Below, piece after piece: positions 1-13,444 of a DNA stretch of 13,645 nucleotides; position 1 is the first letter of the stretch; every line of letters starts with the position of its first letter. The position numbers were made by a program, and so were the translations under genes. The DNA comes from Bdellovibrionales bacterium (GTDB lineage: Bacteria > Bdellovibrionota > Bdellovibrionia > Bdellovibrionales > UBA840): positions 1 to 13,645 of the forward strand of contig JBBKWS010000173.1 in assembly GCA_037969075.1 (NCBI GenBank). The letters are read 5' to 3'. Under the pieces are notes generated by a model. The model worked only from the letters and a program-made list of their open reading frames with translations. It had not been told where the DNA came from and searched no databases.

Positions 1-842
1 AACTCTTGCTCGATCTCTCTTGCTCTATTGACGGCTTTATTAAAGCTGGCGGCGATCAAGTTTTCAACTTCAAGGGATCTTAAGTGATTAAGCCCTGCGT
101 GCGTTGTACCTTTTTTAGAGGTAACTTGATTTTGTAGATCAGAAAGGCTCAATGACTTATTATCGACGGCCAGCTTTACACTTCCTAAAAATGTTTGTAG
201 CGCCATCTCTCTTGAGATACCAGCTGGAAAACCAGAAGCCTCTAACCAAGATTGCCAAACCATAATAAATTCATAAATAAATGCAGGCCCACTTGCACAT
301 GCTATCGTAAGCGCATTCATCTCATCTCCTTCTTCGACCGGAACTACCAGACCGAGAGGGCTTAAAAGATTTTCTGAAAGTTGTGCTAGCGTTTCGGACT
401 CATGAAGTAAACTATATCCAACAATTCCCTCTTGAATTTTAAGAGGAGTGTTTGGCATCCAGCGAATCAGTTGATCGGTTCCAGGGATAAGTGCTTTTAA
501 AGACTGAAGACTAACCCCTGCTGCCAAACTAATAACAATATGCTCTTTGGTAAAAAGACCTCGCACTGACTCTACTGCTGTGACTAAATCTTGCGGCTTG
601 ACGCCTAAAATTATAATTCCGCAGTTTTCAATTAGCTCAGCACTTGAACTGACTACTTGTAAGCCTGGAAACTCGGCCTGTAAAGCATGCAATTTTTCAG
701 GATTTCGATTGGTTACATAGATATCTTTTAAATCTATCACGCCTGCTTTTAAAAAACCTGAAAGTATGGATCTGGATAGGTTTCCCGCCCCTAAAACTCC
801 AATTTTTTTTGCTTTAATAAAACTATGAATCCATGTTTGCAT
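1..842 (-). CDS. proC: Pyrroline-5-carboxylate reductase (3' end runs off the window)
   Basis: Not in the ORF track; translated by hand from ATG at 842: MQTWIHSFIKAKKIGVLGAGNLSRSI... It has the Rossmann GxGxx motif and ProC motifs GVKPQ, SLAAG, RWMPNTP, ACASGPAF and VTSKKGTTHAGL. The frame is open to the window edge (...AVNRAREIEQE). SD GAGGT at 848-852 overlaps the maf stop codon. Confidence 0.95.
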   Translation of the reverse strand, partial: MQTWIHSFIKAKKIGVLGAGNLSRSILSGFLKAGVIDLKDIYVTNRNPEKLHALQAEFPGLQVVSSSAELIENCGIIILGVKPQDLVTAVESVRGLFTKEHIVISLAAGVSLQSLKALIPGTDQLIRWMPNTPLKIQEGIVGYSLLHESETLAQLSENLLSPLGLVVPVEEGDEMNALTIACASGPAFIYEFIMVWQSWLEASGFPAGISREMALQTFLGSVKLAVDNKSLSLSDLQNQVTSKKGTTHAGLNHLRSLEVENLIAASFNKAVNRAREIEQE

Positions 843-851
843 AAAATACCT

Positions 852-1442
852 CTATGAAATTTTCCAACCCTTGAGGGCAATCAACTCTAAAACTCTTTCT
901 ATAGGTAGTCCCATTATATTAAAAAATGAATTATCAAAAGAAGATACAAAAGATCTGCCAATTCCCTGAATGCCGTAAGCCCCAGCTTTATCATACGGCT
1001 CATCTGTCGATACATAGGACTCAACTTCATCATCTGTCAGTTTCTTAAACTCGACCTTAGACGTAATACACTCTGTTATAATTTCTTTTGTATCTAAATT
1101 CCAAAGGCAAAACGCAGTCTTAACCTCATGCGATCTGCCCGAAAGTCTGGTTAAATAGTTTTTTGCCTCGTTTTTATCGACGGGCTTGCCCAGAATATCT
1201 TTGTCTAAAACGACTACCGTGTCTGCCGCGAGAACTATTGATGGCCTAGACCAAAGACTTGCGTATTTATCAAAAACTGCACTAGCTTTACGTCTAGATA
1301 ATTCGCGAAGTGCATCATCCAAGCTCATATTTTCACTCAGATTTTCCGATATTTCTACTGAGAAAGTATGAAATGGAAGATTTGCATTTTTAAGAATTTC
1401 TTTACGTCTTGGTGATTTAGAAGCAAGGACTAACTGATACAT
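852..1442 (-). CDS. maf: Maf family nucleoside triphosphate pyrophosphatase, YhdE-type (dTTP/UTP)
   Basis: Motifs LASKSPRR, AADTVV, LGKP, LSGRSH, DKAGAYGIQG and NIMGLP. The SPRR / D-T / IQG residues match the YhdE subfamily rather than YceF. Confidence 0.95.
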   Translation of the reverse strand: MYQLVLASKSPRRKEILKNANLPFHTFSVEISENLSENMSLDDALRELSRRKASAVFDKYASLWSRPSIVLAADTVVVLDKDILGKPVDKNEAKNYLTRLSGRSHEVKTAFCLWNLDTKEIITECITSKVEFKKLTDDEVESYVSTDEPYDKAGAYGIQGIGRSFVSSFDNSFFNIMGLPIERVLELIALKGWKIS

Positions 1443-1465
1443 ATTTTCTCTAAAGGTTAGGTTAT

Positions 1466-2371
1466 ATGGGTTTAGCAGAAATTATTCTTTTCTTTAGCTT
1501 ACTGCTTTTAGGTATTTCTGTATATCTATTTGTGTCATTCTTCATGGGTGAAGGCGAAGAGCAATCTGCACTATCTTGGGCTTCAGGCGAAGAACCAGAA
1601 AAATCAAAATCAGGATTCATTGAGTTTTCTCGTCCTATAGCACATCGTTTCGCCTTAAACTTAGCAAAAAAAGTAACTAACAAAAGGTACCGAGATAATA
1701 CATTCAGAAATATCAAGGTGGCTGGCTTATCACGTGAATTAAATGTTGATGAGTTTATTAGTATACAGTTTTTATGGGGATTAATATTTCCTGTATTTTT
1801 ATTTATCTTGAATTTCGCCTTACAGTTAGGCTTCCACCCCTTCTTAATTATTTCTATGAGTATTGTAGGCGCGGCGTTTCCGATCATTCACTGTAACACT
1901 GAAAGAAAAAAGCGGTACCAGTCGGTTGTTATTGATCTACCATTTTTTATTGATCTCTTAGCGCTCTCGACTGAAGCTGGACTTGATTTTATCGGAGCTA
2001 TACAACGAGTTGTTGATAAAGCTGAAAACTCTGTCTTGGCTGATGAACTAGAAATCGTACTTCGAGATATTAAGCTTGGTCGATCTAGAAAAGAAGCTCT
2101 GCGTGATATGTCAGAACGACTTGAGATGTCAGAGATCACCAGTTTCATAGCGGTACTAGTAGATGCGGACTCCACTGGTGCCAGTATCGGAAAAGTTTTA
2201 AAGCAGCAATCGGAGCAAATGCGTATGGAAAGATTTTCTCGTGCAGAGAAAGCAGGGGCCAGAGCGTCGCAATTAATGCTTGTACCAATGATGTTATTTA
2301 TTATGCCAGCGATTTTTATAATGGTTTTTGGTCCTGTGATATTACAATTCATGGGTCAGGGAGGAAAGTAG
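1466..2371 (+). CDS. tadC: Tad pilus inner-membrane platform protein TadC (T2SSF family)
   Basis: Motifs LPFFIDLLALSTEAGLDFIGAIQRV, LGRSRKEAL, TGASIGKVLKQQSEQMRMERFSRAEKAG, and the C-terminal TM LVPMMLFIMPAIFIMVFGP. One N-terminal and two central TM segments. Confidence 0.92.
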   Translation: MGLAEIILFFSLLLLGISVYLFVSFFMGEGEEQSALSWASGEEPEKSKSGFIEFSRPIAHRFALNLAKKVTNKRYRDNTFRNIKVAGLSRELNVDEFISIQFLWGLIFPVFLFILNFALQLGFHPFLIISMSIVGAAFPIIHCNTERKKRYQSVVIDLPFFIDLLALSTEAGLDFIGAIQRVVDKAENSVLADELEIVLRDIKLGRSRKEALRDMSERLEMSEITSFIAVLVDADSTGASIGKVLKQQSEQMRMERFSRAEKAGARASQLMLVPMMLFIMPAIFIMVFGPVILQFMGQGGK

Positions 2372-2372
2372 T

Positions 2373-2714
2373 TTGCTATTACGTAATTTACATTCTGATC
2401 AAATCATAAGTGAACATGTGGATGTAGCCACAAGTTTTACTTCAAGATTTTTTGGACTAATGGGAAAAAAATCTATAGAGCCAAAGCAATGTCTATGGAT
2501 AACCAAATGTAATAGTATACATACTTGTTTTATGAGATTTACTATCGATGTTGTATTTTTAGATAGTGATATGAAAGTTATCGCAATAAAAGAAAAAATT
2601 AAGCCGTGGAAATTTACATGGCCAGTAATGAATGCAAAATCAGTGTTAGAGTTTTACGAACAGAACATTGGTTTAAAAATGAAACTTGGAGATCAATTGC
2701 ATGTGGGCAATTAG
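2373..2714 (+). CDS. DUF192 family protein
   Basis: Signature VATSFTSRFFGLMG...CNSIHTCFMRFTIDVVFLD...KPW...AKSVLE. TTG start lies 1 nt after the tadC stop, with SD GGAGG at 2360-2364. Confidence 0.88.
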   Translation: MLLRNLHSDQIISEHVDVATSFTSRFFGLMGKKSIEPKQCLWITKCNSIHTCFMRFTIDVVFLDSDMKVIAIKEKIKPWKFTWPVMNAKSVLEFYEQNIGLKMKLGDQLHVGN

Positions 2715-4266
2715 AATTTTAAACGGAGCATTAGCAGGAAAGACCTATTCCCTGAAAGAGGGGGATAACTATATAGGTCGTGGAGCACAAGCGGACATCC
2801 GCTTGCAAAGCACCGGTGTATCCAAGGATCATTGCGTAATTCATGTAAATGGCAACAAAATCATTCTTTTGGATAAAAATTCTAGTAATGGTACATTTGT
2901 TAATGGATCTAAAATAGCACAAAAACAATTAAACAATGGTGATAAAATTGGGATACATGACGTGCTTGCAGATGTGCAATACAACGTCATTCCTTTTCCA
3001 AAAATGAATCAGCAAACTTCAAACAGCTTTTCAGAAAATGCAGGAAACTTTAATCCTACAGAGAATATGTATGAGCAAGGTGATCTAAACAATCAGCAGT
3101 CTGTGACTAAAGCTCCGACGAATCTAAAAGAAAGTATAGAAGTATATATAGACAACGTAGTAATGCCAGCTATCTATAGATTAATCGAAGTTTTCGAAAT
3201 GAAATGGGTTCTTGGATCGTTTGTGCTAGGCTTTATACTATTAGTTACCAGTCTGTCCATGATACCTATGATGCAAATTACTAAACGTGGAATAGAAAAA
3301 GAAAGTCAACGAAGAGCTCTTACCATTGCTAGAAATATCGCAAATATTAATGGTAGACTTTTAGAGCAAGGACTAACTGGATCATTAAGCGTGGCCTCTG
3401 CCAGCAGAGAAGAAGGTGTAAAGCTTGCCGTGATTGTAGATGCAAAGACTAGTCAGATTATTGCACCAGCGAGTAAAGTTGGTACATTTGAAAACAATCC
3501 TTTTATTAACACAATCCGTAGTAAACCTTATGAATTTGTGAACAATCTAGGTAGCAGTACCATTGGAGCAAGTGTTCCTATGCAAGCCTACAACGCTGAA
3601 TTACAAACAGCCACAGTGGCTGCCTACGCTGTTGTTATATATGATATAGGTGCACTAAGCATGGATGATGGACAAACACTTAGTTTGTTTGTACAAACTT
3701 TAGCGATAGCACTAATACTGGGATATATTCTGTTCTATTTTATGTATAGAATTATTGAAAAACCAATTTATGAGCTAAATAGATCCATTGACGATGCCTT
3801 GAAGCAAACAGGTTCGGTAACAAATAAATACATCTTCCCTATCTTACAACCATTGATTGTGAATATTAACAGTTTACTCAATCGATCTAGTTCAAATACC
3901 GAATCAGGCACCTCTTTCTTTGTTGATAGAAACTCAGAGGCGCAAAATATTGTTAGACTCTTTGAGGGACCAAGTTTTGCTGTAAATAAGGATCTACAAA
4001 TCATTGATTGCAATTTAGGTTTTGAAAATCTAACTGGAATTATATCCGGTAACATTCAGCAACAAAGCCTAGATAGACTAAATGATCAAGCTTTGATTTT
4101 AAGTATACAGGATCTAATTGAGAGAGCTAAAATGCAACCTAACTTAATAGCTAGTAATGCTATTGAGTTTAATGGCAATTCAATGGAAATTGACATCCAA
4201 GCTATCAGCTCAGACAAAGAAATTGTGTACTATGTCTTTAGTATTAAGACCGGAGGTATTGCATAA
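2701..4266 (+). CDS. Inner-membrane protein with FHA, TM, periplasmic domain, TM, HAMP-like and PAS-like regions
   Basis: Start reassigned to ATG 2701 (SD GGAGA 2688-2692; MWAIRILNG). Canonical FHA motifs IGRG, VSKDH and SSNGTFVNG. TMs WVLGSFVLGFILLVTSLSMIPMM and LFVQTLAIALILGYILFYFMY. HAMP-like RIIEKPIYELNRSID and PAS-like GPSFAVNKDLQIIDCNLGFENLTG. Confidence 0.85.
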   Translation: MWAIRILNGALAGKTYSLKEGDNYIGRGAQADIRLQSTGVSKDHCVIHVNGNKIILLDKNSSNGTFVNGSKIAQKQLNNGDKIGIHDVLADVQYNVIPFPKMNQQTSNSFSENAGNFNPTENMYEQGDLNNQQSVTKAPTNLKESIEVYIDNVVMPAIYRLIEVFEMKWVLGSFVLGFILLVTSLSMIPMMQITKRGIEKESQRRALTIARNIANINGRLLEQGLTGSLSVASASREEGVKLAVIVDAKTSQIIAPASKVGTFENNPFINTIRSKPYEFVNNLGSSTIGASVPMQAYNAELQTATVAAYAVVIYDIGALSMDDGQTLSLFVQTLAIALILGYILFYFMYRIIEKPIYELNRSIDDALKQTGSVTNKYIFPILQPLIVNINSLLNRSSSNTESGTSFFVDRNSEAQNIVRLFEGPSFAVNKDLQIIDCNLGFENLTGIISGNIQQQSLDRLNDQALILSIQDLIERAKMQPNLIASNAIEFNGNSMEIDIQAISSDKEIVYYVFSIKTGGIA

Positions 4267-5186
4267 GCCAAACTGCTGTAAACACCTCAGGAATAGCCTT
4301 CTTATTGAAAGTACAAAATGGTACTGACATGGGAGTGGTATATCAAATGGCTGGCGATAGCCTTAAACTAGGTCGGGCAGATGATAATGACATTATTGTT
4401 AAAGACAATAAGTGCAGTCGCTATCACGCAGTTCTTGAAATGAAAGAGCATGGTCTTGTAATAAAAAATGTTAGTAGCAATAACCGCATTTTTGTAGATG
4501 GCCTAGAGGTCAATGAAACCCTTTTACAGCCAAATGCAATTATAAAATTAGGCGACACTGAGATACAATTATTTGTAAGCGGACTAGAGGCTTTGGCTGT
4601 AGCGCCAGATATGCCCGCTGACCTTGCAATGCCGACAGCGGCTCCACTAAAAAAGAAAAACCCTCTTTTTTATGCATATATAGCAATCGCAGGTATTGGC
4701 CTTTATTTACTTCTATCAGATGGAGCTACTGAAGCCCCAGACAAAGCATTAAATGATGATGGAAAAATTCAAACTGAAATTGTTGAGGCGCAAAAAATTA
4801 CAGAACAATTACAAAATTTAAAATACACCTCAGGCAGAGACTCTAAACAATACTTGGATGCACAAGAAGAATACCTAAAAGGATTCAGAGATTACCGAGA
4901 AGGTAATTACTCCAGATCAATCACCTCATTTCAAGCGGCATTGGCGCTATATCCAAAGCATGAACTTGCTAGAAAATATGAAATCTTGTCAAAAAGAAAG
5001 TTGGATGAGTCAATCCAAGCTTCTATGCAAGAAGGAAATCGCTACATGGAGCAAGGTAGATACAATGAAGCTATTTCATCTTATAGAAACGTTATGATAC
5101 TTATAAAATCGCCGGATAACTTAACTTATAAAGAAGCAAAAGCTAAGTATGACCAAGCACAGGCCATTATCGAAGGAGATTTCTAA
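4263..5186 (+). CDS. FHA-TM-TPR membrane protein (start either ATA 4263 or TTG 4305)
   Basis: FHA motifs LGRADDNDI and CSRYH, with a variant SNNRIFVDG. Pro/Ala linker, then KKK followed by TM PLFYAYIAIAGIGLYLLL. TPR-like helices YLKGFRDYREGNYSRSITSFQAALALYP and GNRYMEQGRYNEAISSY. The stop overlaps the next start (TAATG). Confidence 0.85.
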   Translation: MSQTAVNTSGIAFLLKVQNGTDMGVVYQMAGDSLKLGRADDNDIIVKDNKCSRYHAVLEMKEHGLVIKNVSSNNRIFVDGLEVNETLLQPNAIIKLGDTEIQLFVSGLEALAVAPDMPADLAMPTAAPLKKKNPLFYAYIAIAGIGLYLLLSDGATEAPDKALNDDGKIQTEIVEAQKITEQLQNLKYTSGRDSKQYLDAQEEYLKGFRDYREGNYSRSITSFQAALALYPKHELARKYEILSKRKLDESIQASMQEGNRYMEQGRYNEAISSYRNVMILIKSPDNLTYKEAKAKYDQAQAIIEGDF

Positions 5187-7132
5187 TGGCTAAGTTGACG
5201 ATTTTTGTAAATTCAAAAGAATTAGACACCTTAACTCTAGATGAAAGCAAAGAGTACATCATTGGACGCGCTAGTGATGCTGATATTAAAATCAGGGATA
5301 CAACATTTTCTAGAAAACATTTGCGACTATATTTTGAAGCTGGATGGAAAATCGAATGTTTATCAAAGTTCGCTGATATCCAGTCTCCTGCTGGCCAAAC
5401 AAAACAGTTAGATTTAACAGAAACCGTAGACTTTATGGTGTCACAATATCGGTTTTCATTTCAAATAGAGCCTAGTGATCATGCTAGCAGCGCTTTAGAG
5501 TTCGATGTTGAAGAGGATTATTTAGAAGATTCTGCCCCTGCCAATGAAAAATTAATAGAGGAAGAAGATACAGATGTGAATTTTCAAGTCACACAGCCCT
5601 ATTTAACAATTACCTTTGCTGATAAAGCTGTAAACAAGCTTAAGCTAGAGGGCTCCGAGTGGAGCATCGGTAGAACCGATGAGTCTATTGTACAAATAGA
5701 TGATACGAAAGCGAGTCGTAAACATTGCCAAATCACTAAAGATGGAAACACCTTTTTTGTTATGGATCTAGGAAGTTCAAACGGCACATATTTAAATCGT
5801 AGACGAATGAAAGCTAACAAAATCGCCCCTCTCAATGGTGGTGATGTTATCAGAATAGGAAGCACACAACTAGTATTCGAAATGATTGATGAATCTTTTC
5901 AATCAAAACTTATGAATGTGCCCGCCGTGAAATCGCAACTACCAGCAGTGGCGGCACAGCCGCAAAACCCTTATGCCGCACTACAAATCAGACAACCTGG
6001 TGAGCTGCAGGCACAAGGTGCTGTAAGAATATTTAATCCGCAAACTAATAAAAAAGCAGATAAGAAAAAATTTATTGCTATATTCTGCGTCGTTATTGCT
6101 TTACTAGCATATCTACTTAAGGGAGAAAAAGCTGGTACAAAAAATGGCACTAAAAACTTAGCATCAAATGTTGAACAACGCTCTCCATTTGAATTGCTAT
6201 CGAAAGATAATAAAGATTTAGTCATACGTTTTTATGACCAAGCATATAAGCTATACATTCAAGGTAACTATGAGTTAGCTCTGAGTGAAACAAGAAAGAT
6301 ACACCGTTTATTACCAGAGTCTGGATATTTAGATTTGGCAGTTGAGAAAGATTCTAAAGATTTAGAAAAATTGATCACGGTAGCCATAGAATTGAATCGT
6401 CAAAAGCAAGTAATACAGCGCAGTCAAGAGCAACAACAACAACTTATTGAAGAAGTTAATACGATCGTTAATCGTTGCAATACAATGGCAAGGCCTGGAA
6501 CGAATATCCAGTCAGCCAGAGCCTGCCTTTCGCCTGCACTAGAATTAGATCCCGAAAATCAAAAAGCAGCCCTTATTATCGCAAGACTTGAGGCAGAAGA
6601 AGAGAGCAGACGCGCACTAGCCTCTCAAAGAGCCTATACAGAGGGACAAATTAATAAGGGTGAGGATCTTTATCAATCTGCTGTTAACCTAGAGAAAAAG
6701 GATAAGCTGTTAGATGCCATCGCCGCATACAATAGACATATCGCCTCTACACTGCCTGATCCAGGCAACTTAAAAGAGAAATCAAAAGAGCGAAAACAGC
6801 AAATCTCTATTGAGCTAAAAAAACGTATAGATGTATTAATGAAAGAAGCTACAACAGACTATGAATCAAAAAACTATAAAGATTCTATTGCAAAATTAAC
6901 CAAAGCCTTAAGACTTGATCCGTCCGTACAAGAAGCTAAGGATTTACTTGGATCAGTCACAAATGATCTAAATAAAAACATGAAAACTATTTATAGCGAT
7001 TCAGTACTAGAAGAATCTCTTGGAAACATAGAGTCTGCAAAATCATTATGGAAAAAAATCTTAGATACTGACGTTGCTTCTGGCGACTATTATAGAAAAG
7101 CAAATTCTAAACTTAAGAAGTATGGTAGGTAG
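5186..7132 (+). CDS. FHA-FHA-TM-TPR membrane protein
   Basis: FHA1 has IGRAS and FSRKH but lacks the N-G-T motif. An acidic linker follows. FHA2 is canonical (IGRT, ASRKH, DLGSSNGTYLN). KKK precedes TM FIAIFCVVIALLAYLL. Periplasmic TPR/coiled-coil region includes ALELDPEN and ALRLDPS. Confidence 0.88.
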   Translation: MAKLTIFVNSKELDTLTLDESKEYIIGRASDADIKIRDTTFSRKHLRLYFEAGWKIECLSKFADIQSPAGQTKQLDLTETVDFMVSQYRFSFQIEPSDHASSALEFDVEEDYLEDSAPANEKLIEEEDTDVNFQVTQPYLTITFADKAVNKLKLEGSEWSIGRTDESIVQIDDTKASRKHCQITKDGNTFFVMDLGSSNGTYLNRRRMKANKIAPLNGGDVIRIGSTQLVFEMIDESFQSKLMNVPAVKSQLPAVAAQPQNPYAALQIRQPGELQAQGAVRIFNPQTNKKADKKKFIAIFCVVIALLAYLLKGEKAGTKNGTKNLASNVEQRSPFELLSKDNKDLVIRFYDQAYKLYIQGNYELALSETRKIHRLLPESGYLDLAVEKDSKDLEKLITVAIELNRQKQVIQRSQEQQQQLIEEVNTIVNRCNTMARPGTNIQSARACLSPALELDPENQKAALIIARLEAEEESRRALASQRAYTEGQINKGEDLYQSAVNLEKKDKLLDAIAAYNRHIASTLPDPGNLKEKSKERKQQISIELKKRIDVLMKEATTDYESKNYKDSIAKLTKALRLDPSVQEAKDLLGSVTNDLNKNMKTIYSDSVLEESLGNIESAKSLWKKILDTDVASGDYYRKANSKLKKYGR

Positions 7133-7133
7133 T

Positions 7134-7796
7134 ATGCTAAAAGAAAAATCCTACCGCACTAAAGAATCAAAGTTTCCGACGGCCAAACTATCTTTTGAGC
7201 AGAATGACAATCTACTTATTGCTGTTTGGTCTTGGGGGGCTGCCGATGGTGGACCAAAAGCATTAGACATCATTAAGGACTACTACTTATCTGCAAGAAC
7301 AGATATAGAGGCCACATCACCATTTCCACTAAATCCTGATCTAAGCTTATCCGCCAATCACTTACGAATCGGTGTAATGCTTGCCAATGATATCATTGCA
7401 AAAGAAAATAATAATGAAGAGTACACTACTGGAATCGAAGTAATTTGCATGTCTAAAAATAAAAAAGAAGTTAGCTTTGTACATGTTGGTGGCCCATCAT
7501 TAATTAGCCTTAGGGAAAATCAATCTCCTGTAACCTACATACAGCAAAGCCAGTTAGGAAATGAATTTGACTTTAAAGTCACATCTCCACTTCCAAGAGA
7601 GTTATTAGGAATAAAACCTAGGCAGAATGTAATATGTAAAAGCATCAGAACTTTAGAAAAAGAACGATTTCTATTGGTCCAAAGAAACTATATGCCACAA
7701 TTAACACAGGAAAATAATACTCTAGAAAAAATAGAGGCTGAACTAATCAGGGACAATAAGGATTTGCCATTTTGGATTTGCGAATTTACATTTTAA
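7134..7796 (+). CDS. Degenerate PP2C/PPM-fold protein (putative pseudo-phosphatase)
   Basis: Start reassigned to ATG 7134, 1 nt after the upstream stop; ATG 7122 is also possible. Collinear PP2C blocks: LLIAVWSWGAADGG, EATSPF..LS..ANHLRIGVMLANDII, FVHVGG, RELLG and ERFLL. The metal-binding Asp residues are not visible. Confidence 0.7.
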   Translation: MLKEKSYRTKESKFPTAKLSFEQNDNLLIAVWSWGAADGGPKALDIIKDYYLSARTDIEATSPFPLNPDLSLSANHLRIGVMLANDIIAKENNNEEYTTGIEVICMSKNKKEVSFVHVGGPSLISLRENQSPVTYIQQSQLGNEFDFKVTSPLPRELLGIKPRQNVICKSIRTLEKERFLLVQRNYMPQLTQENNTLEKIEAELIRDNKDLPFWICEFTF

Positions 7797-8371
7797 CGTA
7801 CTTTTTTATAATACCGCTTACGATCGCGGTCCCAATGGTAGGCGATCCCTACAAATAATTGCGCCCCTATACCACTATCCCCCGAAAGATTCGCAACAAC
7901 AGCTAGCTCAGTTCTAATCGCAAAATTTGAATTAACAAACATATAGTCCAAACCAACAAATCCTCTAAGCCCAAATAAGAAGTCGTCTTCTTCATCACCA
8001 TCGCCAACTTCCTTACCTAAAACTAAGCCTGGGCCATAATAGAAGTAAGCTGAATTCCAAAAATCTTTGGACTTAATTTTATCTCTAGCATCGTAATAAT
8101 AAAATACGTAGTTAAACTGACCCAAAACTTGCTCTTTGGTATGATAAGCAAAATCTAGATTATACGCTGATTTTGAACTAAGGTACTTTTGATACCTTAC
8201 GCCTGATGGCTGTCCCAACAATAGCTCTATAGATTTTTCACCAGGCTGAAACCCTATGAGTTTTCTGATAACTTTTGGTTCAGATTTAGCATTGTCATTG
8301 TTTACTGGTTTCCGAGCGAAAGAAATTGCAGGTAATAATAAAAAAATTAAACTAATATACAACTTTTTCAT
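7793..8371 (-). CDS. Small outer-membrane beta-barrel protein (DUF3996-like)
   Basis: Signal peptide MKKLYISLIFLLLPAISFA. LLLGQPSGVRYQKYL...AYNLDF resembles the LGxPTG motif of DUF3996-like barrels. Alternating amphipathic strands YFYYGPGLVLG, FGLRGFVGLDYMF and AQLFVGIAYHW. Confidence 0.7.
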   Translation of the reverse strand: MKKLYISLIFLLLPAISFARKPVNNDNAKSEPKVIRKLIGFQPGEKSIELLLGQPSGVRYQKYLSSKSAYNLDFAYHTKEQVLGQFNYVFYYYDARDKIKSKDFWNSAYFYYGPGLVLGKEVGDGDEEDDFLFGLRGFVGLDYMFVNSNFAIRTELAVVANLSGDSGIGAQLFVGIAYHWDRDRKRYYKKVR

Positions 8372-10169
8372 ACTGAACCAGCTCCATTCTTCTCTTAATA
8401 ACGGTATAGTAGGTTCTGTATTTATTCAAAGATAAAATTAAATCACTTGCACTTGGTCCTGCAGGATACCTAAGACTCATATCCCAAGAAAGGTCGGCGA
8501 TATAATTTAATTTATACATACTATCGGATATACTTTTTTCTAAATAATGACGAATAAATAATTCTCTAAATCTATCTCTTCTTTGCGTTCTCTCATGCAC
8601 CCACTTATAAAGCAGGTCCAACTGCGGATCAGTACATGACACAGGAGAAATACGGTTCTTAATGGGGTTCTCGGTTTGCAAAAACTGTAAAAAGCATGGA
8701 TCGTGCAGGTTTTCCCAATCCTCCGTAACCAAAATCCCTAAATTAAATTTTGCAGTAAAAATCCATAGTGAATTATTAGCCTTATTTCCTGCTTGCAATA
8801 GTAAATCCCATTTTTCTTGTTTAATTGCTAGCGTTGCAAGCCATTCCATAACTTGTAGATCTTGTGTGGCTTCAAATATATTAAAAAAGTCTTTTGGGTT
8901 CTGCTCTAAATCAAAAGGATCCCAAAGTTTGCGAGCAAGCTTCCATTTTAATATTTTCATTTCATCAATATGTTCCCACGCTTTAATTCCTAAACTATTA
9001 ATCCACGCCTGGATTTTATTATCAAGTGGCTGTCCCCAATTAGTAACTTGCGGATTAGTTTCCATCTGATCAATCAAATTATTATAGGTATAAATTTTTT
9101 CATCAAAAATGTAATTATAGTTTCCATTCCTAAGTGAAAACCGTGATGTCGAATAATTTTTCCACTGCGGCCATGCTGATTCAACCATAATCCATCGATC
9201 TGAATCCGCTTCAGAGTAATCTTTATTAAAAATATTCTTCAATACAAACATGCTATCGTTAGGCTGCATATCATTTTGCACAAACAAACTATGCCCTAAA
9301 TCCACTAATGAATAATTGTAATCAACTTTCCAACTGTGGCCTAAATCACGCTTTTTATCGCTAGGCTTAAAATAAAATGCAACTTTTGTATTCTCTGAAT
9401 GTAAGTTGTAGGCATCCATCTCATTCTTGCGAAATGCTTCTCCCTTCCCATTCAATCCAAACACAATGATGTTGGTTTTATGCCAAAGATCGCGTTTTTT
9501 AAGGGCACTAGACATATAACCTATAGAATCTAATAAAGAGCCATACTGCCCATCATAAGTACTCTCTCTCTTCAATCCCTCTTCATCCTGAGTAGAGATA
9601 GATGGAAAAAGAAGGTCAGGCAGATAAACTACCGCAAAAAATGGTTTTGATGGCTCATTATCCAACCAATCAAAATAGGCATTCAAAGATTTTTTAGCTG
9701 GACGATAGTATGAATTCCAATGCATTGGAAAAGTGTCATCAAAATAACTAAACCCCTGAGCTAGACCTGATTTACGCCAAATGGCTCCACCACCAGAAAA
9801 AAAAGCTGTTCGCCAACCCTTTTTAAAAAGTAGCTCGGGCGCGGTAACAAATGACTCTTTTAAATAAACATTTCCATTATGCCAGACCTTGTGTTCATTG
9901 GGATACAAACCAGTAAGAACAGAGGCCAATGCCGCTTGTGATTGCGTAGAAGGCGTATACATGTGAGTAAATCGAATTGCTTCGTTACACAACAGGTCAA
10001 AAGCTTCCTTAGATTGATCGACTGTAATGGTCTGTGAACACAAACTGCCTGTAAAGGGCAGTTTTTCAACAGCAATCAATAAATAAGAAGGTTTTTCGCT
10101 ATGATCCGGCGAACATCCCAATACACACAAAAGTAATGCTACAAAAGTCTGGCGAAAGACGCGTCCCAA
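8352..10169 (-). CDS. Sulfatase-like (alkaline phosphatase superfamily) lipoprotein with a degenerate active site
   Basis: TTG start with SD AGGAG and lipobox-like LLCVLGC. Sulfatase scaffold motifs KPSYLLIAVE, FTHMYTPS, ASVLTGLYPNEH, GWRTAFF, GLAQGFSYFDD, KPFFAVVYL and YNNLIDQMETNP. Helical C-terminal extension. Overlaps the barrel gene by 20 bp. Confidence 0.8.
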   Translation of the reverse strand: MGRVFRQTFVALLLCVLGCSPDHSEKPSYLLIAVEKLPFTGSLCSQTITVDQSKEAFDLLCNEAIRFTHMYTPSTQSQAALASVLTGLYPNEHKVWHNGNVYLKESFVTAPELLFKKGWRTAFFSGGGAIWRKSGLAQGFSYFDDTFPMHWNSYYRPAKKSLNAYFDWLDNEPSKPFFAVVYLPDLLFPSISTQDEEGLKRESTYDGQYGSLLDSIGYMSSALKKRDLWHKTNIIVFGLNGKGEAFRKNEMDAYNLHSENTKVAFYFKPSDKKRDLGHSWKVDYNYSLVDLGHSLFVQNDMQPNDSMFVLKNIFNKDYSEADSDRWIMVESAWPQWKNYSTSRFSLRNGNYNYIFDEKIYTYNNLIDQMETNPQVTNWGQPLDNKIQAWINSLGIKAWEHIDEMKILKWKLARKLWDPFDLEQNPKDFFNIFEATQDLQVMEWLATLAIKQEKWDLLLQAGNKANNSLWIFTAKFNLGILVTEDWENLHDPCFLQFLQTENPIKNRISPVSCTDPQLDLLYKWVHERTQRRDRFRELFIRHYLEKSISDSMYKLNYIADLSWDMSLRYPAGPSASDLILSLNKYRTYYTVIKRRMELVQYEKVVY

Positions 10170-10225
10170 GCTTGCTCCTATTCTTCTTTCAAGAGATACT
10201 ATAACAAAAAAAACACGAGGTATAT

Positions 10226-10852
10226 ATGCTTACTGAAAATTTATTTCGAATCGCGCAATACGGTGCAGAATCAATTCTATATCTTTTACTTATTCTTAGC
10301 GTGATTAGCGTATCAATTATCTTAGAACGCTTCTTTACACTTCGTGGCGTTAGGGCTCGCAGTCGGAAGGTGCAAATTAAAATAGAAGACGCCTTAGTCT
10401 CCAACCACCTATCGGATCTTGAGCATATCAGTAGTTCACGTGACTCTATAGAGGCAAAAGCCCTGTCTTATGGTATCAGGTACGTAAAAGACAATGGTCC
10501 CACAGGTGTTGCCGAGGTCTTTAATTCATTTGCTATTATTGAAAAGCAAAAACTTGAAAAATCATTAAACTTTCTAGGCACTATTGGTTCAAATGCTGTG
10601 TTTATCGGTCTTCTTGGTACCGTACTTGGTATTATGAAAGCATTTAAAGATTTAGGTGTGAGCCAAGGGGATGTTTCAATGGTTATGACCGGAATTGCAG
10701 AGGCTCTTACAGCTACTGCCATTGGTCTTTTTGTGGCAATTCCTGCTGTTATTGCTTACAACTACTTTCAAAAGCAAGTTAAGATTATCGTCAGTAGCGT
10801 AGAGAGCGTGAGAGAACTTTGTATTGCTTACGCTAATCAGAAGGAAAAATAG
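10226..10852 (+). CDS. exbB: MotA/TolQ/ExbB proton-channel family protein
   Basis: Three TMs; motifs [25 protein letters not shown] and [33 protein letters not shown] upstream. Confidence 0.9.
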
Positions 10853-10854
10853 TC

Positions 10855-11259
10855 ATGGCTTCTAAACTAGGCGGAGACAATGATGATCCAATAGTAGATA
10901 TTAACATCACTCCCTTTGTGGACGTGATCTTGGTTGTACTAATTATATTCATGGTTACTACTCCCATGTTAGTAAACCAAAGCATACAAATACAGCTGCC
11001 TAAAGCTGTTACTGGTGAAGATACTCCCCCCACGAATATTCAACTCACCATCTCTAAAGAGGGTGATGTTTATGTGGATGGAAAAAAAGTTAATGAAGAT
11101 GAAATTGAAAATATAGCGAAAGAAAAAATTTCATTTAATTCTAATGTGCAAGCATCTATTGCCGCTGATCAGAACACCACTCATGGTCAAGTAATCAGAG
11201 TCATTGATTTGATCAAAAAAGGTGGTATTCATAAATTTGCCATTAGCACTACAAAATAG
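10855..11259 (+). CDS. exbD: ExbD/TolR family protein
   Basis: DINITPFVDVILVVLIIFMVTTP contains the conserved TM Asp. Also IQLPKA and IAADQNTTHGQVIRVIDLIKKGGI. Confidence 0.92.
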   Translation: MASKLGGDNDDPIVDINITPFVDVILVVLIIFMVTTPMLVNQSIQIQLPKAVTGEDTPPTNIQLTISKEGDVYVDGKKVNEDEIENIAKEKISFNSNVQASIAADQNTTHGQVIRVIDLIKKGGIHKFAISTTK

Positions 11260-11270
11260 GAATTAAACAA

Positions 11271-12653
11271 TTGCAACAAACATCGACATTACAAAAAGCA
11301 TTTGAAATAAACTTAGAGCCAACCATATACGGAACATTTGCGGAAATTGGCGCTGGTCAAGAAGTAGCTAGACAATTTTTTGAAGCCGGAAAAGCTTCAG
11401 GAACCGTTGCCAAGACTATCTCAGCTTACGACATGGTATTTAGTGACAGCATTTATGGTAAAGAAAAAACAGGTCGCTATGTCTGCCAAAGTCGAGTTGA
11501 AAAAATGCTGTCCTACGAATTTGATCTATTGATAGAGCGTCTTAAAACAACCAGAGGTGATTCTACCAACTTCTTTTCGTTTGCAAACACCGTAACCACC
11601 GGTAGTAAATCTAGAAACATAGACTCGCACGGCTGGATTGGCGTTCGTTTTCAATTAAAACCCAATGGACCAGTTAATCAAATCGTAGCACACATTAAAA
11701 TGAAAAATAGATCGAACAGCCTTCAGCGTGAAGCTCTAGGTATTGTTGGGGTTAATTTAATTTATGCGGCTTTTAATCACACGGATAATCCCGAACAGTT
11801 CATCTTGTCGCTGATAGACAATCTTGATACCTCTCGAATCGAGATGGATATGATAGATTTTCAGGGAGATGATTTAAAACATATCGACAACCGTTTGATG
11901 AGTTTAAAGTTAGTGGCAAATCATCTTACCAATGCCGCCCTATTTTCACCCGAAGGCAAGGTTTTGCATATAGCTGATGTCTTATTTAAAAAACCCCTAG
12001 TTCTTTTACGCGGAAGCTTTTCGCCAGTAACTAATATCCATGTGGATATGATTGGTTCTGCCCTAAAGCAAATCAAGAGCGCCACCAAAGAAACACCTGT
12101 AGTATTTTTAGAACTTACTATTCATGACTTAATTCAGGATGGAGAGTTTAAAAATGCCAACTTCTTAGAAAGAGTAGATGTACTACAAACCCTAGGGCAT
12201 CCAGTTTTAATCAGTAATTTCTTTTTATTTTTTGAACTTAAAAAATATCTAGAGAAATTTACCACAGAGACTATATCAATGATAATGGGCGCCAATCTTT
12301 TATCTAAGCTTTTTGAAGAAGAATTTTATAAAAATGTAAACGGTGGTCTATTAGCTGGAATCGGACAGCTGACAGAGGGTAATTCTAAAATACTAATATA
12401 CCCGTTTAAAAAATCTGACACTGCCATGCTTACTTTGAGTAATTATAAGCCAGCGCAAAGTTCTTCTCAAATATTTGAACATCTAAAACAAAAAGATGTA
12501 TTTACTGAACTAGACTGTCTTGAAGTGTGTAAAGAAATCCACTCTGAGAATATTTTAACTATGATAAAAAATAAAGACGCCTCTTGGGAAAATTTTGTTC
12601 CAAAGAAAGTAGCGTCTTTGATTAAAGATCGAAAATTGTTTGGCTATAAATAA
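11271..12653 (+). CDS. Cytoplasmic two-domain protein: CinA-C-like N-terminus plus NadD/NMNAT-like nucleotidyltransferase
   Basis: N-terminal INLEPTIYGTFAEIGAGQEVARQFF..GKASGTVAKTISAYDM. C-terminal LLRGSFSPVTNIH is a (T/H)xxH nucleotidyltransferase motif, and the end WENFVPKKVASLIKDRKLFGY is NadD/NadM-like. No signal peptide. TTG start with AGGA at 11258-11261. Confidence 0.7.
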   Translation: MQQTSTLQKAFEINLEPTIYGTFAEIGAGQEVARQFFEAGKASGTVAKTISAYDMVFSDSIYGKEKTGRYVCQSRVEKMLSYEFDLLIERLKTTRGDSTNFFSFANTVTTGSKSRNIDSHGWIGVRFQLKPNGPVNQIVAHIKMKNRSNSLQREALGIVGVNLIYAAFNHTDNPEQFILSLIDNLDTSRIEMDMIDFQGDDLKHIDNRLMSLKLVANHLTNAALFSPEGKVLHIADVLFKKPLVLLRGSFSPVTNIHVDMIGSALKQIKSATKETPVVFLELTIHDLIQDGEFKNANFLERVDVLQTLGHPVLISNFFLFFELKKYLEKFTTETISMIMGANLLSKLFEEEFYKNVNGGLLAGIGQLTEGNSKILIYPFKKSDTAMLTLSNYKPAQSSSQIFEHLKQKDVFTELDCLEVCKEIHSENILTMIKNKDASWENFVPKKVASLIKDRKLFGYK

Positions 12654-13043
12654 TTACTTTTTAAATAGTAGTTTTATTGTATTTGAATACGGTTTTGCAA
12701 AAAACGATAGATACACCATCAATATTACAATCACGATTGCTATTGGCAGACCACTTGGTTGCAAAAAGGCATGAACCATAAAAATGTTTAGAGCGATAGG
12801 CGCAAGTACTACTAAAGCCAATGGCACAAACCTGCCTGATAATAATAAGGCACCACAAACTATCTCGGTGATTTTTAATAATGGAAAGAAATAAACACTC
12901 GCTATCAATCCCCCCATAAATACCATCAAACTCTCTGGCATATCCGGTGGAGGTGGTATTAGATTAAATAACCCTGCAATTCCGAAGATAAAAAATACTA
13001 GACCCAGTAAAATTCGTGCGATTAACGGAAGTTTTGCTTTCAT
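12654..13043 (-). CDS. DoxX family membrane protein
   Basis: ARILLGLVFFIFG, YFFPLLKITEIVCGALLLSGRFVPLALVVLAPIALNIFMVH; four TMs. SD AGGAG at 13052-13056. Confidence 0.9.
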   Translation of the reverse strand: MKAKLPLIARILLGLVFFIFGIAGLFNLIPPPPDMPESLMVFMGGLIASVYFFPLLKITEIVCGALLLSGRFVPLALVVLAPIALNIFMVHAFLQPSGLPIAIVIVILMVYLSFFAKPYSNTIKLLFKK

Positions 13044-13079
13044 GATGTTTTCTCCTATGTAAATAGGATGATAGACTTT

Positions 13080-13098
13080 AAATCTTGTGACAAGGTTT
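13080..13098. promoter_or_regulatory. Palindromic putative operator upstream of the DoxX gene
   Basis: AAAtCTTGT-G-ACAAGgTTT, a 19-bp dyad with one mismatch, 37-55 bp upstream of the DoxX start codon. Confidence 0.35.
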
Positions 13099-13154
13099 TA
13101 GCTGCTTACACATTGGTGTCAGCGAAGCTTCGCGTTAAATCTCCCACCATATCC

Positions 13155-13229
13155 GCCAACCGAATTAGATGTCCGTTAATACCGACCTTAAAAATCCGTA
13201 GGCCCAAATACTCGCATCTAATTTTTGGC
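13155..13229 (-). ncRNA. Candidate structured RNA (75-nt rod-like hairpin; possible antisense RNA or DoxX leader)
   Basis: Outer stems GCCAA/UUGGC and AAUUAGAUG/CAUCUAAUU. The inner stem AGUAUU-(UG)-GGCCU / AGGUC-GGUAUU needs four G-U pairs that exist only on the - strand. Confidence 0.3.
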
Positions 13230-13259
13230 ACAAACTTGCAATAGAGAGCTTGCTGCAAG

Positions 13260-13285
13260 AAAAAACCCCGCCTGAAAGGAGGGGT
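13260..13285 (-). terminator. Hairpin that reads as an intrinsic terminator on the - strand and as an SD-sequestering stem on the + strand
   Basis: On the - strand: ACCCCtCCT-TTC-AGGcGGGG followed by TTTTTT. It lies about 160 nt downstream of the phnA stop. Confidence 0.5.
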
Positions 13286-13288
13286 AAA

Positions 13289-13393
13289 ATGATCTATAAA
13301 GACTATAGATTGTTTCGGATTGTTATTAGGATACTTGAGTTAATAATTAAGATTTTGAAAATTATTTTAATACTTAAACTTTTGGGCTTATAG
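13289..13393 (+). CDS. 34-aa cationic amphipathic peptide, candidate type I toxin (MIYKDYRLFRIVIRILELIIKILKIILILKLLGL)
   Basis: Below the ORF-track cutoff. Perfect SD AAAGGAGG (13275-13282) 6 nt before ATG 13289, TAG at 13391-13393. 20 of 34 residues are I/L/V, and charged residues 7, 10, 14, 17, 21 and 24 show helical periodicity. Confidence 0.65.
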   Translation: MIYKDYRLFRIVIRILELIIKILKIILILKLLGL

Positions 13394-13444
13394 ATAATTC
13401 GCTGCCATGCTCTTTTAATCTGGATGGGGTTTTCTCTTGTGGCA

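Follow-up and report, generated by a model that had tools for sequence, protein, structure and literature searches.

The intergenic cassette described here is probably a type I toxin-antitoxin module, chromosomal in location and part of a so far undescribed family of the Bdellovibrionales. It lies near the end of the 13,645-nucleotide stretch of DNA that we analysed (the window), between a DoxX gene and a phnA-domain gene that are both on the - strand. The phnA-domain gene is convergent with the peptide gene, and its stop codon abuts the 3' end of the cassette. An earlier note on this DNA had put forward the type I reading, which is supported by a multicopy family with conserved frame, Shine-Dalgarno sequence (SD) and amphipathy under purifying selection, and further by antisense signals, a promoter and a terminator, that are conserved, and by long-range pairing of the two mRNA ends. 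The long-range helix, the embedded antisense promoter and a sigma54-type motif were absent from that first reading. Sequence comparison establishes the family and the selection on its coding sequence; it also shows the two promoter motifs, the stem resembling a terminator and the pairing between the mRNA ends. The elements of the cassette are as follows.

13116..13137, + strand: 22-bp genus-specific repeat GTGTCAGCGAAGC...GCGTTA, left edge of the variable cassette site
13225..13242, + strand: sigma54-type -24/-12 motif TTGGCAC-N4-TTGCAAT (GG-N9-GC), predicted +1 at 13251
13251..13444, + strand: predicted peptide mRNA of ~194 nt, fold z=-5.0, closed by the long-range helix
13251-13275 with 13419-13444, + strand: arms of the 5'-3' long-range helix, from the pair list, starting at the predicted +1
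13257..13304, - strand: predicted antisense RNA of ~47-49 nt, deduced from promoter and terminator, covering start codon and SD
13265..13285, + strand: SD-sequestering hairpin of the nascent mRNA, from folding and alignment; on the - strand, the antisense terminator stem
13275..13282, + strand: Shine-Dalgarno sequence AAAGGAGG, 6 nt before the ATG
13287..13315, + strand: 12-bp start-codon hairpin, from folding; in the close copies, four in number, 97.9% of cells are paired
13289..13393, + strand: peptide ORF; its 34-aa product, cationic, amphipathic and modelled as a single helix, is a putative type I toxin
13313..13338, - strand: FliA/sigma28-type antisense promoter TCAAG-N15-CCGAAA, inside codons 9-17
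13404..13416, + strand: downstream anti-SD GCCAUGCUCUUUU, of which 13408-13416 pairs with 13278-13286 in the full-length RNA
13419..13444, + strand: long-range helix, 3' arm, whose end adjoins the convergent phnA-domain stop codon

The peptide and its family

Translation of the ORF at 13289-13393 reproduced the 34-aa peptide of the earlier note, and the perfect SD described there was found as AAAGGAGG at 13275-13282 with a 6-nt spacer. Seven K/R and two D/E residues give the claimed net charge of +5, and the charged residues show the same 3-4-3-4-3 spacing. The proposed amphipathic helix is borne out by a best 18-residue hydrophobic moment of 0.85, against a shuffle mean of 0.44 (p=0.001), and by an AlphaFold model consisting of one helix (residues 2-31, mean pLDDT 87). 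A 47-aa TTG-start extension of the ORF was rejected: it lacks an SD, its first codon contains the predicted +1, and the C76 copy has no start codon at that place.

Elsewhere in the window, positions 11271-12653 hold a conserved 460-aa ORF that has no Pfam match and ends beside the DoxX stop codon. Positions 1466-7132 hold a TadC-type gene followed by several ORFs whose products resemble FHA/TPR proteins. The guess that the host is a predator holds at the level of the order, since the cluster of the window's TadC-type protein has a named Bdellovibrionales bacterium member.

Type I loci are often multicopy, and a search of this genome and its relatives found homologues. BLASTN recovered two more copies in the window's own assembly, G000 (contigs C176 and C76), and the congeneric G001 holds two. 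A fourth G000 copy, on C86, is more distant than those on the window, C176 and C76. An RNA model built from four close copies, together with a peptide profile, reached the genomes G003 and G233. Of 384 genomes in the order, 56 had a match to an 8-row peptide profile (E<=0.01). The DNA fetched around the matches of this 8-row profile (30 loci and 80 regions) contained 115 distinct ORFs with a start codon and 2 matches without one. The start codon is ATG in 113/115, an SD match of at least 4 nt precedes 114/115, and the ORF encodes 31-44 aa in 109 and 26-60 aa in 113 of these; family members are related, and such counts overstate their independence. In a sample of the phylum, matches to an 81-row profile turned up in 41 of 101 other Bdellovibrionales genomes and in 0 of 299 from outside the order, and we have seen the family only in this order. 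Matches per genome range from 1 to 12, some of them in tandem, and presence is patchy.

The homologous regions conserve all three features on which the proposal had been staked: frame, SD and amphipathic pattern. Median charge across the family is +6, a 19-residue hydropathy window reaches at least 1.6 in 100/108 peptides, and amphipathy exceeds that of the peptide's own shuffles in 61/108. In 27 disjoint close pairs, pN/pS is 0.25 outside the codons of the embedded promoter and 0.38 inside them, and by this measure the peptide is under purifying selection.

These data bear on a rival explanation in which the ORF would be incidental and the locus would act through its RNA, whether a structured repeat RNA or a small RNA driven by FliA. 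The strongest nucleotide conservation across the family does lie in the promoter boxes and the hairpin, and the few frameshifted or truncated members (6/115 fall outside 31-44 aa) would fit such a product. We nevertheless judge it very unlikely, given the pN/pS of 0.25, an indel of 3 nt among the four close copies, and the retention of SD, ATG and a 31-44-aa ORF in 7/7 copies found by DNA or RNA-model search alone; in addition, ten loci gave no Rfam match at the gathering score.

Several smaller features of the copies were observed. The copy at L002:1574-1669 (G001:C80) has a TAG three codons early and encodes a 31-aa peptide, with its RNA signals all intact. A TCCGGWATTCGTAC motif follows just past the 3' end of the cassette in L008, L009 and L002; it is absent after the window copy, where the phnA stop codon adjoins the cassette. 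Public gene calls (P0014, P0016, P0017 and P0018) often start too early, at or near an ATG inside the -12 promoter box, giving mis-annotated proteins of 59-66 aa. None of the nine intact family peptides looked up was on record with its true start; gene callers mostly miss these peptides.

Catalogue searches, neighbours and insertion site

The earlier note did not recognise the family, and neither did the catalogues, none of which (Pfam, NCBIfam, PHROG, PDB, Rfam) held a matching one. Pfam, NCBIfam and PHROGs offered no family common to more than 4 of 81 members (best E-value 0.001), and PDB sequences gave no match to the peptides at E<=10. E-value matches to Rfam in the window were dismissed as generic terminator matches below the gathering score. 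A profile of the four close peptides found nothing among 1.84 billion representatives. In a word-index search, 0 of 17 candidates obtained with the extended 4-row alignment belonged to the family, and the 81-row alignment returned 12 proteins, all family-like and none functionally named. With the narrow alignment, a scan of GTDB contigs gave 1 weak match, unrelated when inspected, and viral contigs gave 0 of 233 candidates; tblastn with the single peptide found no match in phages or plasmids. No RNA run was among the sequencing runs listed for this sequence, a result without bearing on expression. Matches in the ESM Atlas (all <0.8) were discarded, as were 10/10 loci from a metagenome pattern scan for SD plus downstream anti-SD, which were chance matches, and a weak RNA-model match in G032 that had no SD-ORF.

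Among the flanking ORFs, of which 89/96 were scanned, we found varied housekeeping genes and no integrase, transposase, conserved exporter or transporter, protease or immunity gene. This bears on the alternative, raised in the earlier note, of an antimicrobial-peptide-like role, in which the predator would direct the peptide at its prey. The charge (+5, family median +6) and the high hydrophobic moment do resemble those of helical antimicrobial peptides, and the host order is predatory. The family sequences, however, have no signal or leader peptide, none of the genes that would export the peptide or confer immunity is conserved beside them, and a FliA-driven antisense RNA would silence the peptide in attack phase. 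Of all the explanations weighed, we consider this one the least probable.

The left edge of the cassette site is marked by the 22-bp repeat, which has 10 matches in G000 and 5 in G001, and none in 5 further genomes with family members. In 5/6 genus copies checked, the distance from the repeat to the ATG downstream of it is 162-197 nt. Other positions in G000 are C108:13305, 15487 and contig end, and contigs C24, C35, C86, C125, C142 and C192; on C108 the repeats are in direct orientation and separate accessory genes. Five of 11 repeat copies stand ~90-100 nt upstream of a sigma54-like motif. The repeat could be a recombination site or an activator site, and an integron attC or dif-like nature was considered. 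TCCG...CGGA-like dyads likewise occur, with the 22-bp repeat, upstream of the sigma54-type motif.

A stretch of G000 (C108:200-13327) is syntenic with window positions 1-13138 and 84% identical to them. C108 is without the cassette: its synteny with the window ends at the 22-bp repeat, beyond which it carries other genes. A contig in run X2 has position 13140 joined to 13449. The break and this junction together indicate that the cassette sits at a variable site. Since the assembly contains this 84%-identical second copy of 13 kb, it probably mixes two close relatives, and its four copies of the cassette need not share one chromosome.

Promoter motifs and predicted RNA structures

The sigma54-type motif upstream of the peptide gene is one base shorter in the window than the canonical form. 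With a variable spacer, it is conserved in the four close copies and in the G001:C87 copy. When the family is aligned on GC, GG occurs at N10 in 67/96 members, at N9 in 4 and at N11 in 5; the GC anchor was our choice, and only the GG spacing and the helix start described below are thus independent observations. G(-24) is 95% conserved, and GG-N10-GC stood upstream in 12/15 further members examined. Every close copy in the window's subfamily has GG-N9-GC, and a further variant was seen; the C86 copy in G000 has N10 spacing. The genome G000 carries 17 sites of the form TGGCAC-N5-TTGC against 6 with N4, and 3 of the latter are cassettes. As far as is known, sigma54 strictly needs N10 spacing. The N9 form could be a weaker promoter, one that is read with an offset of one base, or one that a different factor recognises. 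The -12 box of the family is usually AAATGC, not TTTGC, and its A-run doubles as the U-tract of the antisense RNA.

G000 encodes RpoN, and its canonical sigma54 sites precede a flagellar rod gene, fliL and others (6/20 downstream genes scanned). A sigma70 promoter was rejected, with 2 weak sites against 3.8 expected. As a separate observation, at least six paralogous coiled-coil proteins of 113-161 aa in G000 (C47, C55, C58, C65, C70, C138) each follow a canonical sigma54 motif; one of them is weakly CCDC90-like, below the Pfam cut-off. In addition, GGTTCTGCGAAAGGA, upstream of the C76 copy (G000:C76 ~105-125, L009), resembles by eye the start of APsRNA5, reported as a highly expressed attack-phase sRNA (PMC3627812).

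On the opposite strand, the window carries a -35 box at 13338-13334 and a -10 box at 13318-13313. From these, transcription would start at ~13304, cross the AUG and the SD and reach the hairpin and U-run at 13285-13257, the RNA overlapping the ORF by a predicted 16 nt (13289-13304). Its +1 was set ~9 nt after the -10 box, as in mapped FliA promoters of B. bacteriovorus. In that species, the available part of the published analysis gives a FliA consensus of TTAAG-N16-CCGATA in 92/140 mapped attack-phase promoters, and its promoter table has TTAAG-N15/16-CCGAWA examples with the +1 ~9 nt after the box (PMC3627812).

Codon usage indicates that this promoter is conserved within the coding sequence. 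An anchor Arg is present in 114/115 family peptides; its codon is CGG in 79, CGA in 25, CGT in 10 and AGA or AGG in none, and other Arg codons of the same ORFs are AGR in 134/294. The base before the anchor codon is T in 113/114. The preceding codon is T-ending in 107/108 cases of Tyr, Phe, Ile or Val (TAT 44, TAC 0; TTT 41, TTC 0; ATT 15/16; GTT 7/7). Read on the - strand, this gives YCGAWA, with TTAAG-, TCAAG- or TTAG-like boxes 15 nt upstream. Both FliA boxes match in 75/114 members and the -10 box in 95/114, the mapped promoters having been compared by eye. The T before the CGN codon is kept in 15/15 further members examined from the 81-row profile search. In the 27 disjoint close pairs, pS drops from 0.279 outside to 0.162 inside the promoter codons. 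As far as these comparisons reach, the antisense promoter is conserved and kept at silent sites. G000 encodes FliA, above the curated cut-off, and genome-wide the FliA motif is weakly enriched there, with 51 and 59 sites at N15 and N16 against 37-48 at other spacings.

The hairpin at 13265-13285, read on the - strand in the alignment, has a terminator-like stem and a U-run, a combination present in 80/96 members by our own loose rule. A consensus terminator scan of the window found none, probably because the stem has a mismatch. A role of this hairpin solely as the phnA terminator was rejected, the stem being conserved beside unrelated neighbours.

On the sense strand, the earlier note had placed the SD in the hairpin at 13265-13285 and the AUG in a second hairpin at 13287-13315. 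The latter indeed folds, at -7.8 kcal/mol. The former, at -11.2 kcal/mol, is expected from folding only while the transcript is nascent or short at its 3' end; when the full RNA (13251-13444) is folded, the 5'-3' long-range helix replaces it. The fold of the full-length RNA (z=-5.0) was equalled in stability by 0/200 shuffles. Across the family, pairing between the 3' flank and the initial 30 nt of the mRNA reaches z<-3 in 63/89 members; for the control, the 30 nt upstream of the +1, it does so in 2/89. The 5'-3' duplexes have a median of -30.6 kcal/mol for cognate and -18.5 for non-cognate partners, and the cognate duplex fails to beat all 25 non-cognate partners in 38/89 members. The helix begins at -1 to +5 of the sigma54-predicted +1 in 47/81 members, with a peak at +2/+3, and in the window exactly at 13251; the arm of the local hairpin continues upstream of this start. 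The coincidence of helix start and predicted +1 lends the start site independent support.

In the window, the predicted unpaired probability of the SD is 0.08-0.17, and in silico the SD stays paired at every 3' end tried. GCTGCCATGCTCTTT of the downstream anti-SD is invariant in the four close copies. Across 45 of the 89 members, the median opening cost was 10.1 kcal/mol for full-length against 12.0 for truncated RNA, both from equilibrium folding. The translatable form might arise by 5' processing or by kinetic access. Taken by themselves, the four close copies show no significant covariation (114/500 shuffles reach the same level).

From these elements we infer transcription from the motifs, the identity of the sigma factors, translation, membrane action and toxicity. 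A sigma54-type promoter would produce an mRNA of 190-300 nt (predicted family median ~280 nt), whose ribosome site would be closed first by local hairpins and then by the 5'-3' long-range fold. The cationic amphipathic helix would most likely insert in the cell's own inner membrane and lower the membrane potential. From the opposite strand, the FliA (sigma28) promoter in the coding sequence would yield a short antisense RNA spanning both start codon and SD, which would end at an intrinsic terminator overlapping the mRNA's 5' end and block translation by pairing.

The module is possibly coupled to the switch between attack and growth. We tentatively entertain a two-sigma toxin-antitoxin system, a reading with perhaps a minority chance of being correct, in which sigma54 would load a stable, locked mRNA and FliA, the master sigma factor of attack phase, would supply a short-lived antitoxin. 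The peptide would then be released only where FliA activity is missing: at prey entry, in long starvation or at a failed flagellar checkpoint. If this holds, the module would be more than a selfish element: it would time development in the Bdellovibrio cycle or act there as a switch for quality control.

It is also conceivable that the same sense and antisense control governs a peptide that is a non-lethal regulator of a membrane protein or membrane state at one step of the life cycle. Retention in many lineages among housekeeping genes, the lack of mobile-element genes in the 89 neighbours scanned, two promoters belonging to the motility and attack programme, and purifying selection would all fit. 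Nonetheless, a triple translation lock with an antisense RNA is a toxin hallmark according to the consulted parts of T1TAdb and PMC6733600, genomes carry anything from 1 to 12 copies, some in tandem, and presence is patchy, and other genes replace the cassette at the orthologous site in a close relative. We regard a non-lethal regulator as unlikely, and the toxin reading as the better account.

Comparison with known type I systems

In the portions of the published sources available to us, T1TAdb defines type I systems by a protein of 20-60 aa, an mRNA of 150-400 nt with an anti-SD, and an antisense RNA of 60-200 nt (PMC8594479). The peptide here has 34 aa, and 113/115 family ORFs encode 26-60 aa, within that range. 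The predicted mRNA (194 nt here, family median 280) also falls within the mRNA range, with the SD predicted to be occluded. Predicted antisense spans, counted a few bases past the U-run, are mostly 91-111 nt in the family; in the window the span is 47-49 nt, short of the 60-nt lower bound. The definition further asks for a peptide toxic to its own cell and for neutralisation through pairing with the antisense RNA; the peptide resembles such toxins in physicochemical terms, and the overlap of the two predicted RNAs entails complementarity.

The closest resemblance is to AapA/IsoA of Helicobacter and Campylobacter, likewise a multicopy chromosomal module (T1TAdb Table S1, PMC8594479; PMC6733600). 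As described there, its antisense RNA falls inside the mRNA, on the 5' side of the ORF, with which it shares 10-40 nt; its antisense promoter is inside the ORF (IsoA3, PMC6733600); its SD is held by transient hairpins and then by a 5'-3' long-range interaction; and its product is a short basic membrane-type peptide. The predicted elements of our cassette reproduce this layout, including the 5'-3' bottom stem. The two differ in that AapA peptides are given as 28-32 aa, against mostly 31-44 aa, the bulk of them 33-43 aa, in the Bdellovibrionales family, and AapA mRNAs as 150-250 nt, against a median of ~280 nt. The family's promoters are of sigma54 and sigma28 type, whereas T1TAdb annotates TANNNT -10 boxes (PMC8594479). 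Truncation at the 3' end is reported to open AapA mRNA, but truncated family forms were no more open than full-length ones in silico. Homology to AapA found no backing in the Pfam, NCBIfam and PDB-sequence libraries, on whose searches this statement rests. Given these differences in the peptide's length and sequence, in the types of promoter and in the predicted mode of activation, we have not filed the family under AapA.

Hok/Sok and Ldr/Rdl, too, are described as having an antisense RNA within the 5' region of the mRNA, and Hok as having 5'-3' pairing (tac/fbi). In those systems the antisense RNA is reported not to overlap the toxin ORF, mRNAs are 300-450 nt and there is a leader ORF; in the Bdellovibrionales family the predicted antisense RNA overlaps the start codon, and the peptides have no Pfam or NCBIfam match. 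DinQ/AgrB and TisB/IstR1 share short amphipathic single-helix peptides with the family, but their antitoxins are listed as separate upstream genes without overlap. Pfam DinQ matched none of 81 members, and a DinQ-like cluster that came first in the Atlas, at 0.78, was set aside as within the range of shuffled proteins.

For Bdellovibrio itself, the embedded antisense promoter has the same form as promoters of the attack-phase FliA regulon of B. bacteriovorus (PMC3627812). By eye, the eight attack-phase sRNAs given there are outside the peptide family, and the word toxin is absent from the main text of that study. A standard survey, in the part available, records no known type I locus in B. bacteriovorus HD100 (PMC2887945), with one 54-aa candidate, Bd3114, in its supplement that we know by listing and not by sequence. 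A literature search at title and abstract level, with subscription journals and the T1TAdb site outside its scope, returned neither a Bdellovibrio type I system nor one driven by sigma54 and FliA, and within that scope we found no description in print of the peptide family or of the predicted sigma54-toxin/sigma28-antitoxin wiring.

If our reading is true, an order-wide type I family exists in a lineage where the survey lists none of a known family. An antitoxin under the attack-phase sigma factor and a toxin under an activator-dependent one would tie membrane-active peptides to the attack/growth switch, and the same codons would encode both a promoter and an amphipathic helix. One copy adjoins an fxsA gene that clusters with sequences whose named sources are B. 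bacteriovorus, which should make the module testable in a tractable, non-pathogenic model.
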